NCBI GenBank assembly: GCA_002633005.1
Contig: NMRA01000652.1
Coordinates: 145,155-209,154, forward strand
DNA from: Phoronis australis
Lineage: Eukaryota > Animalia > Phoronida
Reading direction: 5' to 3'
Length of the DNA: 64,000 nt
Position numbers and translations under genes: made by a program. Positions within the stretch are counted from its first letter, which is position 1, and each line of letters begins with the position of its first letter. Shown piece by piece: positions 25,401-31,400 of this stretch. The notes beneath the pieces are model-generated. The model searched no databases and was not told the DNA's origin. It was given only the letters and a program-made list of their open reading frames with translations.

Positions 25401-28400
25401 AATTACCTTAAAGAGAAGAAGCTAAGATTTTCCTTTCGGAGTGCCTGAGGAAGGAAACAGTCATTGTACATTTTGATCTTTTAGTTCAGAATTGAATGAA
25501 GTAAAATGCAATAAAACGAAATACTGGTCGATAGAGATGCTTACATAACTCTTGAAGGTATTCACCTTCAATGTGGCACATCTGTCTGGCATGCATCCTT
25601 GAACTTCGTATGTTGGGTTTCTGAAATAAATGAATTCATTAGTCTAATGTACAGTTTCGCTGTAGCTTAGCATGTTGTGCTTCTTCGACCACCAACTTCA
25701 ACAAACTGGGCTAATGTCTATGGATGAATAATTTATCATTCTTAGATTGTGCCTGGGCTCAGAAGTACCTAACATTTCAAATTCAAAAACTGGGTCAGTC
25801 ATGGGAAATGTTTTCCTTCCTTTGTGAAAAGAGAGTTCTATTTAGAACAAGGTTGCCCAATGTGGTTGGCGTAATTTCTAGCATTCAGAAGATCACACTG
25901 AACATTGTACAAGTTGATGCCCCGAAGGTGACGCTCTTTCTTTGGATAAAAGGTCACGTTTTGACTACCTGTGTGGAGTAATGGTCTCGCTAAATGTCAT
26001 GACTTGTTTTTTTCACAGGACGAGCATGTCATATCGTTAGAAGAACTCTGTGAACGCCTTGGGACCGATCCAAACACTGTGAGTGAGAGCTTTTTAAACT
26101 TACCGTATGTGATGTGTATTTTTTTTGTAGAATTTTATAGACATTTTAAATTATTCCTTCTGGTAGTTATTGTGGTATGGATTTGTGGGTTCATTCTTAC
26201 TTATTGATTTAGTATTCAGGGGAGGTTGTTTTGTTGCTTGGCAACACAATTCCCTTGAAATTTCCCAGGGTAATGTCTTCCTGGTATAATGAACATTAAT
26301 TTAGTACAGGTATTATTGATACATAGTTCTCCTATATGGCTAATGTGGTCTGATTTATTTTTAGCAAGAGATTCATACACCAAATTCAGAGGCCAATTGT
26401 TTTGGAACGTGTCAAAAACAAAAAGGGAAATTGTTCAGACCGTCAATGATTTATAGAATTAACTGGGTTTTTTAGTTGTGTACACTGTTTGCAATCCAGT
26501 CGTCTAGGCCTTAAAGTGTGTAAAGAAATGTTTCAGTTAGATACAACGTAAGTAAAAAGTACAATATCTGGCTGTACCTAGTGTGTCATCATACCTGATT
26601 TGGTTAATTGCAGTTGAAATTTTGTCTAGTGTTTCAGTCCATTTGATAATGGGAGGGTTGTGTAATTTTGACGTTCGTGATTGATATTGCGTCAGGTAGT
26701 ACGGTAATTCTCCAGCGATTTGGCTCAAAAATAATTGCCAAAATTGTCATTTTACCCTTTTTCACAGGCTGGTGTCCTGGTGACTGCTACAAACAATTTA
26801 AAGTTTACTTTTAGGTGTTTTATGGCATCTACCATGTGCCGTGTTAGTAATAGACTTATTTTATCTTTATTTTTATGTAGAAATGTTACGAAATGTAATT
26901 TCACTTGTTAGCCATAGTGTGTGCTGTAGCACTGGCTGAATATTGTATTATGTACGGTAATCAAAATAGTAAGGCAGTAGTTAACTCGCCTTCTTTTGAT
27001 TTAGACTCGTTTCCCTTATGGAAGTGGTCGCAAGTCAAATGAAAGCTGATTTAATCGCTTCAAGAGAACTGACACTTGATTATTGCTTGAGACCAGGCAG
27101 TGCAAGTTGGCTGGTCAAAGTGTGTAATTTTATATGTTGACTATGGTCTGGAAGAGTAACGAGCTGTCGGTTATTTGAAAGCTCAGAAACCACTTAGTAA
27201 GGAACACGATGAAAGTAATTTCGTATCAGTGAGTAGTCTTAAAAGGGTTGTTTCTTTGACAGAACGCAGGTTTTTAGCCTCATTAAACATAAGATATAAC
27301 TAGAAATGTATAAATGTATTATTTCTTTTTGTTATTATTGTTATGCAATTATGCCACGTGTGCATGTAGGGACTCTCATTAGATGAGGCAAAACGGAAGC
27401 TGGTTCAGAATGGCCCCAACCAGCTGTCTCCGCCGAAGACTGTGCCTGAGTGGGTCAAGTTCTGTAAACAGCTATTTGGCGGCTTCTCCACCCTGCTGTG
27501 GGTGGGGTCTGCGCTCTGTTTCATGGTGTACGGCATTCAGTACGGTCGGGACGGTGAGGAGGCACCTGATGATAATGTACGCGGCAAGTCGACGACACAC
27601 TAACCCCACTTTTGTGCGACGTTGTTACCGTTTTGTTTGGTTATTTCGTTGTGTTATTTGTGTGAATCGAAATAGTCTTTTGTGACCTCCTATGGAGTGC
27701 ACTCAACTACGACTGCACTCAACTAGGCCAAACAAGGTCTTGTTCCAAATGGGCGGACTGAATGTACATGGGGTGTCATTTTAAAACGCAGTGATAATTT
27801 TACCCATTTGTTGTAATTGTCCCGAAATCACAACGGGGGAGTTACAGAGTTGGTAACATTGTCACTGTTTGTTGAAAACCATCGGCTTGAATCGAGGAAT
27901 TCACTTCAGACAGTGTGCAGTGTGGCCTAACTTTCACATCAGTCTGTACCAAGATCTGCACTTGTCTCAGATTGTCACACAGATGACACGACGAAGCCAC
28001 CTCAATGCTCACTGTGCTTTTTACTTTGTTTTGTTGATTGTTGCGTTTCGTTGCGTTCTGTTCGTCTAGGGTCTAACACCTCAGAAGGCGCGTGAGGTTC
28101 TCGAGCGCGACGGCCCCAATGAGCTGTCCCCACCCAAAACCACCCCTGAGTGGGTCAAGTTTTGCAAACAGCTGTTTGGAGGCTTTTCTACATTGCTGTG
28201 GATAGGCGCTGTCCTCTGCTTCGTTGCTTACAGTATTCAGTCGGGCACGTCAGAAGAGCCGCCTGGTGATAACGTAAGTGTCCCCTGGGGAAGGGGTGGT
28301 CTTAACGCCTTTTGAAAAAGAACTAGGGTTCCCGTCAAGACATTACCATGAAGGCATGATTTGTTTCCATTGAAATTCTGGCCTACAAGTGCCTAGCTTT

Positions 28401-31400
28401 TAAACTTGCAAGCTGAGACAAATGCATCGTGAACAAGTTCAAATTTACAAGTTATGCTCATCTGAATTTTTGCTGATTAGAAGGGTTCATGCAATATTTA
28501 AAGTTGCACTTTGCCCTGTTTAGCTGGCCGAAAACGAAAATCGAAACGGGTCTTAAACGCTAATGAAATTGGTCTCATAATGTTCCTTTCCATGATGGGA
28601 TTCTATTTCCCTCTACCAAAAAAGCATTAAAACACTTCAGAGTTTATTGGCGTTAGCCAGCCCTTAAATTGTGTTTTCGAAAATGACCAATCCTAAAGTT
28701 GTGAGTTCAAAAACGGCACGTGTATGTATTGTCAGTGACTTGGGTTGGTAACGGAAATAGAATCCTGTTGTGGTATGGAATATTATGAGAGCAATTTTAT
28801 CAGAGTTGAAAAACTGGTTGGATTTCCATTTGTACCCTGTTAAACAGCGCAAAATGCAACTTAAAATTGATGACATTGTTTACTGCGATGTTAGTTTGCT
28901 GATGTCAGTTTGTGCACATGGTCTTAGCTGCTTTACGTATTATTCCCACTGGAAAAAAGTTTTCGAAATTTGTTAAGTCTTATGGTATGACCCTTTTTGT
29001 TATAAACAATTAATGATAATCTGTTTTTTTAATTAAGTAGTGGTTTTTATTCAACATTGTTAAGACGTTTGCTTGCTACAGCTGTTGCTCATGTTGTTGA
29101 TGTTAACCGTCGCCGTCCTGGAACGGTGTTTTCTCTGCAGCTCTACCTCGGCATTGTGTTAACGGTGGTGGTTGTCGTCACTGGCTGTTTCTCCTTCTAT
29201 CAGGAGTCCAAAAGCGCCAACATCATGAAAAGTTTCTTGAATATGGTGCCGCAGGTTTGTTTCAGGTGCCGCTGGCGCCACCGACGGCTGCGCAAAGAAT
29301 GAATGGCTTTAATGGCTGCGACGTGTCTAGCATCGCTCGTTACGATCACCTCGTTGGAGGCTCACCGAGTTATGAGCTGACTGCCCGTTCCCCAATTGAA
29401 CAATTCGTTTTGAAAAACCTTGTATTCTAGGTCTTGTTTTTGTGGTGTGTGCATTACGCTCGTAACTCGTGACTGCCACAGCGAAAGTCGTTCGTATAGT
29501 TTTCACTTTCAGTTTGCAAACCATGGAGCTGCATGCGACCTGATATCCACTGCTTTCTTCCTATGACTGTTGACACCTAGTGTGTAGAGACAGTGCCGGG
29601 TACTGTGAACTTCCGTCTCTGAAGGGCAAAGTACTATCAGTTGATGGAACGATGAGAGGAGATCGAGATGAATTTCTGCTTGTTCGTTGGGCTTGTGTAA
29701 AGCATGTCGTTGCTATTTCACTGACCTTGACTGCGTTTTTAGTTACAGGGTTTTCTTAGAGACACTGCTAGATCAGTGTTGAATGACCACATTCATTTTG
29801 CAAATATTCGTGACACTAGGGCTGTGCATTATAAGCTACGACGCAGTTATGAAACGGACGTGATGCTTTTTGGTTTCCTTTGTGTGTTGTAGTTAGATTA
29901 ATCTTCAGCATGTTTAAGTTGCCAGTTAATTCAAGAACTGTGGGCATTTGTTGTCTGGAGGCAAGTCATAGTTTGCATGTAGCCTATGCGCACAGCTCTA
30001 GTGACGGTGTGCGTGATTCATGAAAAATTCATCAGTTGCTGTTGTTGTCTCTGTTCCTTCCACTGACCGTTGTTGTGCTTGTGTAGTTGTACCTAGGTGT
30101 AGTGCTGGCGGCGGTGGTCATCATCACCGGTTGTTTCTCCTACTACCAGGAGGCCAAGAGTGCCAACATCATGAAGTCATTTAAAGATATGGTGCCGCAG
30201 GTTTGTCTCCGGGCTGACAGTAACAACTGCTTTTTCTGTGGTGTTTGCTTTAATCTCCCATCTTGTCGTCGTTAATCAGGCTTTGCTGTTTCTTTCTGTC
30301 GCATACCTTGCACGACGTGGAGCCTGAAAACTGTTTACTGTGGTTATGTGATATTCCTGTTGGACATGTGTTGCCATCTGGCTTTGTGATATCACTAAAC
30401 ACGTTAGCAGGCTCTATGGCTGTGTAATAATATGACTTACTTTATGGAGGAGAACACCAATTCAGTAATGATTCACACCCGTGCAACTGTGATCACTGCT
30501 GCCATTTTCTATTTCTTTGTCATCGAGATTGTTAAATGTGTCATTCCATTTGAGCACACGCAGAATTCGAATTACAGGTCCAGCGTTGAATCATTCTTAT
30601 TTGGTGTTCTTGTCCTTTTATCCAGTCAAGTTGGCCAGGACATGAGGAGCTTCAGGAGTGTCATGTAGGATTATTTTTTTTCCGTTGCCAGTTGCAGTCG
30701 TCTTTGCTTAATATTCCTACGGGCTCGTTTTTTGCAGTTGTACTTAGGTATTGTCTTGTCCCTCGTTGTTATGATCACGGGCTGTTTCTCATATTATCAA
30801 GAAGCAAAAAGCGCCAACATTATGAAATCATTTAAGGACATGGTACCACAGGTGAGCCGGTCTTCAGTTAGCAGCCTGTGTTTTTTGTCGTGTTCCTAAG
30901 TAATCATCTAGTCATAACAAAGCTGTTTACATATGTTAATACTCCCTTTGTTATTAGCGTGTGCGTTCTTGATTGTGTCCTTATCGGTTTTATTTTGTTT
31001 CTTTTTAATGCACACCTAAGAAGATTAAACACTTAATGATCACTTTTTGTTATGGTTTATAATCGAAAATAGAAAAATGTGAATTCTGAAACATGATCAT
31101 CAAAGTACACCAAAATTTATGTTCACCTGAGCCTTCAATTTTGCCTCATTTAACGCAGTTAAGCTAAAAAAGCGCATATTGAATTTATGGGTATGCGACA
31201 AAATGCAGTTTTGATTAGTTGTAAGAAGTAATGAAGAAACAAAAAAATCATTCCTGGAATAACTTCCTGTATTTTGCATTGATAAAACTGCCACAATTTA
31301 CACGTCTTTTTTCAACATACATTGTGCATCGTTCTGCACTAGTGTGATAATTTCTGGGCTGTTTTCACGGATCCCAAAAAATTGAAATATACCCCAACAT

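Follow-up and report, generated by a model that had tools for sequence, protein, structure and literature searches.

A gene of the phoronid Phoronis australis, identified by its sequence as encoding a Na+/K+-ATPase α subunit, carries two adjacent clusters of tandemly duplicated exons (4a/4b and 5a/5b/5c), and exons are spliced in one at a time from each cluster. The gene lies in the window analyzed here, a stretch of 64,000 nucleotides from contig NMRA01000652.1. We consider it probable that the spliceosome picks one exon per cluster, with 4b and 5b as the default, and that the minor choices supply certain tissues or stages with isoforms of altered kinetics or packing.

Results

The gene has 19 exon positions, or 22 exons when alternatives are counted, and all of its introns are GT-AG (Table 1). 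Its single open frame contains the motifs DKTGT, TGES, and PEGL, which we take to be those of P-type ATPases. The best protein matches, at 80-82% identity, are from an annelid, a bryozoan, and unnamed entries; all named database matches are Na+/K+-ATPases, the remainder being unnamed. Exon 4b scored 105-111 bits against α1/α3 structures, compared with 61-72 bits against H+/K+-type entries. These matches assign this lophotrochozoan gene to the Na+/K+-ATPase α subunits (P2C ATPases), with ATP-driven exchange of 3 Na+ for 2 K+ together with a β subunit predicted. No doubled exons were found in the gene outside exons 4 and 5, and the TM7-region exon (positions ~830-865) gave a single match in the window.

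Table 1. Coordinates of the sodium pump gene and of the exons in and around the duplicated clusters (window positions)
Feature	Position	Strand	Length	Description
Na+/K+-ATPase α-subunit gene	13492..41578	+		Coding span
Exon 1	13492..13524	+		Predicted from ATG, frame, and donor
Exon 3	26019..26078	+		Constitutive; donor for 4a or 4b (junctions 26078-27370 and 26078-28070)
Exon 4a	27370..27576	+	207 nt	Cytoplasmic N-terminal part, TM1, 13-residue H1-H2 loop; minor, divergent
Exon 4b	28070..28273	+	204 nt	Pig residues 55-122; major, canonical
Exon 5a	29141..29254	+	114 nt	TM2 and linker to actuator domain; pig residues 123-160; minor
Exon 5b	30087..30200	+	114 nt	Major; contig X1 reads exons 3-4b-5b-6
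Exon 5c	30738..30851	+	114 nt	Conserved; rare in the sampled runs
Exon 6	32274..32408	+		Constitutive; acceptor for 5a, 5b, or 5c (junction reads)

The two clusters had been proposed in a first-pass annotation of the sequence and are confirmed here, with the exon coordinates of Table 1. All five copies have AG/GT ends, are in phase 0/0, and are free of stops, and a single frame stays open whichever of the six exon combinations is followed (1041 aa with 4a, 1040 aa with 4b). The annotation's assignment of the cassette to TM1, the H1-H2 loop, and TM2 also held when exons 4 and 5 were placed on the pig protein, with exon 4b aligning to residues 55-122 of 3wgu_A without gaps. Exons 4a and 4b are identical at 138/207 nt and 45/69 aa; the corresponding values are 85/114 nt and 29/38 aa for 5a and 5b, 80/114 nt and 30/38 aa for 5a and 5c, and 85/114 nt and 34/38 aa for 5b and 5c. 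Similarity is limited to the exons and a few splice-site bases, the introns being unrelated. Since the repeats end near the exon borders, an assembly duplication is ruled out; the copies are only 67-75% identical, and in three RNA runs there is read coverage of all five, introns included. The four copy pairs gave pS values of 0.62-0.99 versus pN values of 0.06-0.22 (p at most 3e-5). In the comparison of 5b with 5c there were 24 synonymous differences in ~24 sites and 5 replacement differences in ~90 sites (pS 0.99, pN 0.06, p 4e-20). By these measures all copies are under purifying selection and the duplications are old, with synonymous sites saturated. Purifying selection and the junction reads described below together rule out pseudo-exons.

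Splicing was examined in three raw-read runs of the same study (X2, X3, and X4), chosen by species label and validated by alignment to the window gene; ~18-19% of each run was read, and a joint was listed at 3 reads. Exon 3 was joined to 4a in 12, 16, and 0 reads (X2, X3, and X4, in that order throughout) and to 4b in 16, 34, and 117. The main pairing between clusters was 4b-5b (33, 34, and 116 reads), with 4a-5b in 10, 8, and 0 and 4b-5a in 2, 1, and 14. Exon 6 was joined to 5b in 50, 31, and 186 reads, to 5a in 0, 3, and 14, and to 5c in 0, 0, and 3, the 5c joint being flagged "between: not known" and no upstream 5c junction being listed in these libraries, which are rich in intronic RNA. 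Splice support was thus found on both sides of 4a, 4b, 5a, and 5b, and on the downstream side of 5c. Among the 12 joints of at least 3 reads and the 505 reads leaving cluster exons, none was listed that joined 4a to 4b, one exon-5 copy to another, or an exon-4 copy directly to exon 6. One further joint, whose ends are not displayed, could be an exon-3 skip. Mutually exclusive splicing, as the annotation had proposed, is borne out: every copy is joined to a neighbor, no double inclusion is listed, and the splicing is not confined to a single exon per cluster. The suggestion that one gene could make six variants fared less evenly; all six paths are open and three of the six exon 4-exon 5 junctions were observed (4b-5b, 4a-5b, and 4b-5a), but the full 2 x 3 set was not, with 4a-5a, 4a-5c, and 4b-5c unlisted in X2, X3, and X4 at the 3-read threshold.

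The annotation had suggested that splicing, in place of gene duplication, may produce isoforms tuned to tissue, salinity, or toxins. Exon use did differ between runs, and genotype differs between those runs as well. Exon 4a accounted for 32-43% of upstream junctions in X2 and X3 and for 0/117 in X4 (Fisher p ~3e-10 and ~6e-10 against X4 for X2 and X3 on reads; ~5e-7 and ~1e-6 on distinct read starts). The share of 5a was 0-11%, and its difference between runs was weak (p 0.07 from upstream junctions; p 0.04 after pooling the two junctions, a step that counts some molecules twice). Exon 5c made up 3/203 downstream junctions in X4 and was absent from X2 and X3. X2 and X3 share alleles distinct from those of X4 at 26475, 28064, 30188, and 32279-32402; the G>A change at 28064, 6 nt before the 4b acceptor, was present in 8/8, 4/4, and 0/7 reads.

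Doubling of the TM2 exon extends beyond the window gene. Database proteins revealed it in Lingula anatina, Owenia fusiformis, Ladona fulva, Ephemera danica, Frankliniella fusca, and Armadillidium vulgare. The Lingula protein pairs differ solely inside the 38-residue exon, at 2 sites and at both loci, and those of Owenia differ at 6 sites; the remaining cases are gene models containing two copies in succession. We infer mutual exclusion in Lingula, Owenia, and the arthropods from these proteins and gene models. A second exon 5 was found in 0/19 genomic loci spanning exons 4-6, some of which are 96-97% like Watersipora. For exon 4, a search of 278 proteins returned only two fused double-length models, an insertion check within a later set of 162 proteins covered 9 chosen ones, and no second copy was present in 10 genomic loci, 6 of them distinct, that reach from exon 3 to exon 5. 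A doubled TM1-loop exon was found in no other examined animal.

Discussion

The junction counts raise the question of how freely the exons combine and what the minor ones are for. Coupling of the clusters, such that minor exons are always paired with a major partner and the 2 x 3 matrix is not free, is a serious possibility, though somewhat short of even; the only minor-exon pairings seen are 4a-5b and 4b-5a, and the run with the highest use of 4a is not the one with the highest use of 5a. The lack of 4a-5a is nevertheless uninformative, because under independence only 0.6, 0.2, and 0 such reads are expected in X2, X3, and X4. Splicing noise from leftover copies would fit the scarcity of 5c above all, and of 5a, but is very improbable given 4a shares that reach 32-43%, intact splice sites, the synonymous saturation and low pN of 5b and 5c, and the finding that the variants examined among the reads, at 29161 in 5a and at 30806 in 5c, are synonymous third-position changes. 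The contrast in 4a use could also reflect allelic cis variation between individuals and not tissue or environmental regulation, and the variant near the 4b acceptor lies where such an effect might arise. That variant is, however, a purine-to-purine change, two genotype-like classes are insufficient for linkage, and 4a is old and under purifying selection, which implies its regular use; we regard the allelic account as rather unlikely.

The positions of the changed residues suggest what the variants might do. Among the 24 differences between 4a and 4b, 12 are cytoplasmic before TM1, 6 are in TM1, and 6 are in the loop. The 4a loop is one residue longer than in 252/254 homologues, and 4a carries rare residues (A107V in 0/236 homologues, Y112 and R114 each in 1/236); no close relative of 4a was found, the best match being 70% identical over part of the query. 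In 5a, F141 occurs in 0/240 and L155 in 0/243 homologues, and the changes unique to this copy fall where TM2 ends on the cytoplasmic side and in the TM2 linker. Given this distribution, the variants would probably affect the E1-E2 cycle and the way TM1 and TM2 pack, assuming the domain roles presumed for these regions. The toxin tuning raised by the annotation is not supported by the sequence at the classic resistance positions: C104, Y108, Q111, D121, and N122 are unchanged in 4a and 4b, and the cardiotonic-steroid-resistance substitutions at Q111 and N122 are absent from both. That 4a nevertheless supplies an H1-H2 loop insensitive to cardiotonic steroids or another extracellular ligand, like the paralogue pairs of milkweed insects, seems to us improbable. 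The insertion and the rare loop residues would suit such a role, as would the status of 4a as the faster-changing, sample-restricted copy; in the available portion of 10.1101/542811, the derived copy of cardenolide-adapted grasshoppers carries two extra residues between 119 and 120, and resistant insect copies are tissue-biased. Set against this, half of the residues changed in 4a lie on the cytoplasmic side, and a vertebrate paper on loop insertions has since been retracted. We know of no exposure of Phoronis australis to such toxins. Hardly likelier is the broader proposal that splicing swaps the whole ouabain-binding entrance, combining a neofunctionalized 4a of changed ligand sensitivity with three TM2 modules, and that the TM2 exon is a hotspot which at least four protostome lineages each duplicated on their own; if true, a single gene would achieve what takes gene duplication in vertebrates and milkweed insects.

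The origin of the exon-5 copies can be judged from their sequences. N149 and K152 are common to 5a, 5b, and 5c and occur in 0/385 other segments, and the three copies form the sole starred clade (SH-aLRT 95) of a 38-column tree of little power; the whole-protein tree was built by a quick method. The three copies therefore likely arose within their own lineage, in parallel with doublings in brachiopod, annelid, and pancrustacean, and because the exon is doubled elsewhere while the window copies form their own clade, the TM2 exon may be a repeated duplication hotspot. A single ancient protostome event, followed by homogenization within lineages and frequent loss, would account for doubling of the same exon in a brachiopod, an annelid, and four pancrustaceans and for two copy types common to several pancrustacean species. 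It sits poorly with the private residues and clustering of the window copies, whose saturated synonymous sites argue against recent conversion, with Lingula's two forms being mutual nearest neighbors, and with the 19 loci lacking a second exon 5, and we think it unlikely.

We favor selection of one exon from each cluster, the minor exons giving pump isoforms with changed kinetics or membrane packing that would be tissue- or stage-specific; the variants are likely made as proteins and likely differ in function. Splicing factors or RNA structure probably keep the copies apart, because the sequence excludes three other means: exon lengths are all multiples of 3, ruling out frame-shift decay; U12-type donors are absent, ruling out U12 incompatibility; and intra-cluster introns of 493-832 nt with AG-exclusion zones of 38-71 nt make steric hindrance unlikely. 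In Dscam-type docking-site/selector systems, elements next to each of the alternative exons compete to pair with a single intronic element. In a search for competing pairing of this kind, the best helix of each of the 15 intron pairs lay within the range of shuffled sequences (at the lowest, 5/40 shuffles reached it); the strongest duplex, between sequence just behind the 4b donor and the 5a-5b intron (-29.8 kcal/mol), was matched by 5/40 shuffles.

In arthropods this gene has known mutually exclusive exons in the TM7 region. As far as the available text of PMC3793950 goes, they comprise 11a/11b in barnacle, 2-4 copies in Daphnia, Anopheles, and Ixodes, and four in Drosophila; isoform pairs differing only in the TM7 region (Limulus, Tachypleus, Schistocerca, Folsomia, and Penaeus) agree with the annotation, which places the Drosophila cluster near TM7. 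That cluster shares with the window gene the one-at-a-time use of tandem homologous exons, but its exon is single in the window, where the clusters cover TM1, the H1-H2 loop, and TM2. The Lingula, Owenia, and arthropod TM2 doublings concern the identical 38-residue exon, but with two copies instead of three and with no partner exon-4 cluster seen. The neofunctionalized ATPα1 paralogues of cardenolide-adapted insects, in the accessible part of 10.1101/542811, likewise combine conserved and divergent H1-H2 versions with biased expression, but by whole-gene duplication and with 111/122 substituted; in the window only exons are duplicated and 111/122 are ancestral. The clusters belong to the general class of tandem exon duplications, for which convergent origin and tissue-specific use are typical; convergent cases are enriched in ion transporters according to the available text of PMC9741552, whose main text does not contain "ATP1A". 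The insect alignment of PMC6733596, from what is available of it, masks "two alternatively spliced exons" without naming them; the TM2 exon may be among these. A weak keyword search of the literature returned no published description of TM1/TM2 exon cassettes; TM2-exon doubling across several protostome phyla is new here.

The sodium pump is a standard example of a protein diversified through gene duplication, with the vertebrate ATP1A1-4 paralogues arising from whole-gene duplication, and its H1-H2 loop is a classic toxin-resistance site. The window gene represents an alternative route, duplication of the H1-H2 module at the level of the exon. Its variants would be natural chimeras, identical but for TM1-loop or TM2, and would make a clean system for learning which properties the module tunes. 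Doubling of the TM2 exon in several protostome phyla suggests a recurrent need, and surveys of resistance sites that rely on single references or gene models may hide or concatenate such alternatives.

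Paired Exon Clusters in the Pump Gene

In P. australis, the Na+/K+-ATPase α gene carries two clusters of mutually exclusive exons that are both expressed and conserved. The gene is complete in the window on the + strand (coding span 13492–41578), and its best whole-protein matches are 80–82% identical; in a quick tree of 39 rows, a set without named phoronids or nemerteans, it paired with Watersipora, a bryozoan, at SH-aLRT 95 and fell outside the annelids and molluscs. As the first-pass annotation had described, exon 4 (TM1 and the H1-H2 loop) is present in two copies and exon 5 (TM2 and its linker) in three, with intact splice sites. 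Each of the six splice paths gives a single open frame of 1041 or 1040 residues. Exons 4a and 4b share 45 of 69 residues and the exon-5 copies 29–34 of 38 among themselves. Similarity between copies is limited to the exons and does not include the introns, and no doubling of any other exon of the pump gene was found in the window. In pig α1 numbering, exon 4b aligns without gaps to residues 55–122 and exon 5 to 123–160, so the cluster boundary falls directly after N122. For all four copy pairs, synonymous difference was 0.62–0.99 per site vs. 0.06–0.22 for replacement (p at most 3e-5), indicative of old copies under selection. Exons 5b and 5c differ at almost all synonymous sites yet agree in 34 of 38 residues, which makes it improbable that 5c, though seldom seen, is a dead copy.

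Coordinates of the cluster exons, their flanking exons and the neighboring gene start
Feature	Position	Strand	Remarks
TOM70-like gene start	13379	-	head-to-head with pump start 13492 (+); start codons 113 nt apart
Exon 3	26019–26078	+	
Exon 4a	27370–27576	+	AG/GT ends, phase 0/0
Exon 4b	28070–28273	+	AG/GT ends, phase 0/0
Exon 5a	29141–29254	+	AG/GT ends, phase 0/0
Exon 5b	30087–30200	+	AG/GT ends, phase 0/0
Exon 5c	30738–30851	+	AG/GT ends, phase 0/0
Exon 6	32274–32408	+	

The stretch between the TOM70-like and pump start codons is likely a bidirectional promoter and contains words resembling E-box and CRE motifs; an exon at 6560–6760 matches human TOM70 (E 3e-10). Tandem arrays lie at 53549–57260, among them 4.7 copies of a 391-nt unit and several units of 39–42 nt.

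Splicing of the Clusters

RNA data under one species label comprised a contig set (X1) and three raw-read runs from one study (X2, X3 and X4, the order of all triple counts), of which ~18–19% each was read; the libraries are rich in intronic RNA. Exon 3 was joined to 4a (12/16/0 reads) and 4b (16/34/117), 4a to 5b (10/8/0), and 4b to 5a (2/1/14) and 5b (33/34/116), while exon 6 was reached from 5a (0/3/14), 5b (50/31/186) and 5c (0/0/3, its upstream junction not being among the joints listed). The contig order in X1 was 3-4b-5b-6. In all, 505 reads left a cluster exon, and the 12 joints found with at least three reads each (a second listing left two of its joints unspecified, one of them presumably 5c to exon 6) included none between 4a and 4b, between exon-5 copies or from exon 4 to exon 6. 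With junction reads for all five copies and no double-inclusion joint at this threshold, the mutually exclusive splicing proposed from the genome is borne out. The proposal of six variants stands in part: all six paths are open and three of the pairings occur in reads, but the other three are not among the joints. Under independence only 0.6, 0.2 and 0 4a-5a reads are expected, so free 2 x 3 combination is neither shown nor refuted.

Double inclusion would preserve the frame, so decay could not remove its products and was ruled out as the enforcer of exclusion. The intra-cluster introns measure 493–832 nt, with AG-exclusion zones of 38–71 nt; they contain no U12-type donor, and no intron-intron helix beyond shuffles was found in 15 pairs. 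Exon choice may instead be factor-driven or use short RNA pairing undetectable from one sequence. The donor of 4b matches the consensus, and 4a shows the weakest pyrimidine tract among 20 exons scored, which fits a default role for 4b and a regulated one for 4a. The 4a share of upstream junctions was 43% (12/28) in X2, 32% (16/50) in X3 and 0/117 in X4 (p under 1e-9 on reads, about 1e-6 on distinct starts), and 5a use peaked in X4 (14/130 vs. 3/88, p 0.07). This sample difference may reflect tissue regulation of exon choice but is confounded with genotype: alleles common to X2 and X3 and absent in X4 include G>A at 28064 (8/8, 4/4 and 0/7 reads), a site 6 nt upstream of the 4b acceptor.

Several other features were observed around the clusters. 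Sense-strand read differences at 25900–32600 show A>G exceeding T>C (24/8, 22/9 and 26/13; p 0.0002–0.002), which could be A-to-I editing of pre-mRNA or plain alleles; in these RNA reads, G>A likewise exceeds C>T. The intron common to both clusters holds a 115-nt inverted repeat (28496–28610/28753–28867, 76% complementary) to which reads from other loci map, so it is probably a small mobile element. Read insertions of ~35 nt relative to the assembly, at 29372 (5a-5b intron) and 32167 (5c-exon 6 intron), are intronic length polymorphisms.

Protein Changes and Possible Function

The 24 differences between 4a and 4b lie at residues 57–79 (12, cytoplasmic and before TM1), in TM1 (99–109; 6) and in the loop (6, one an insertion). 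Comparison with homologues marks 4a as the unusual copy: its A107V occurs in 0/236, Q67 and N68 in 1/234 each, and its loop has 13 residues, against 12 in 252/254. Four TM2 positions (127, 130, 131 and 134) account for all residue differences between 5b and 5c; 5a additionally has F141 (0/240 homologues) and L155 (0/243). C104, Y108, Q111, D121 and N122 are intact in both 4a and 4b. According to 10.1101/542811, changes in cardenolide-adapted insects fall most often on Q111 and N122, and the derived copy of a grasshopper is distinguished by two residues inserted at 119/120. Since 4a keeps Q111 and N122, it lacks the classic resistance signature, which leaves the earlier suggestion of toxin-tuned isoforms unsupported; that 4a changes cardiotonic-steroid sensitivity is improbable. 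Kinetic tuning would be the likelier role of the variants, because TM1 and TM2, together with their linkers, form the coupling between the actuator domain and the ion gates.

Comparison with Other Animals

In arthropods, the mutually exclusive exon cluster of Na+/K+-ATPase α lies near TM7. Isoform pairs at 834–864 in five arthropod genera agree with this location, which the first-pass annotation had given for Drosophila; the alternatives of the window gene, in contrast, are at TM1-loop and TM2. Published work reports mutually exclusive exons of this gene for a barnacle, Daphnia, Anopheles, Ixodes and Drosophila (PMC3793950, which cites Palladino 2003), an enrichment of convergent tandem exon duplication among ion transporters (PMC9741552), and the masking of two unnamed alternatively spliced insect exons (PMC6733596); PMC10028858, PMC11765297 and PMC6444547 contributed nothing on a TM1/TM2 cassette. 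No description of TM1/TM2 exon clusters was found in a literature search that matched the enzyme name poorly and does not establish absence from print.

Same-species pairs were compared among 249 near-full-length proteins, and 80 genomic loci were examined. Lingula anatina proteins labeled X1 and X2 differ within exon 5 only (2 sites, both loci), as do Owenia fusiformis CAH1797436/7 (6 sites), and gene models of Ladona, Ephemera, Frankliniella and Armadillidium contain an exact 38-residue insertion, two exon-5 copies read through. Four public arthropod gene models (P0322, P0323, P0324 and P0206) yield over-long proteins through concatenated mutually exclusive TM2 exons, three of them also through TM7-region copies. 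In another animal, an intronless exon 4-5-6 stretch in two copies (L058, 6001–6453 and 10624–11076) represents tandem pump genes. Within pancrustaceans, different species share the exon-5 copy types, suggesting a single old event in that group. A148, N149 and K152 are common to 5a, 5b and 5c; N149 and K152 occur in 0/385 other exon-5 segments and A148 in 6, and 5a/5b/5c form the only starred clade of a 38-column tree. A second exon 5 was seen in 0/19 intron-bearing loci spanning exons 4–6 (15 distinct; 5/19 without the exon 5-6 intron, several 96–97% like Watersipora). An ancient doubling followed by homogenization and losses would accommodate these patterns less simply than several independent duplications of exon 5, the simplest reading. 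A second exon 4 was seen in 0/10 loci spanning exons 3–5 (6 distinct), and the comparisons yielded no other case of its doubling. Duplication of the TM1-loop exon has thus far been seen in the window gene alone, and recurrent TM2-exon doubling across protostomes is an additional finding beside the window cassette.
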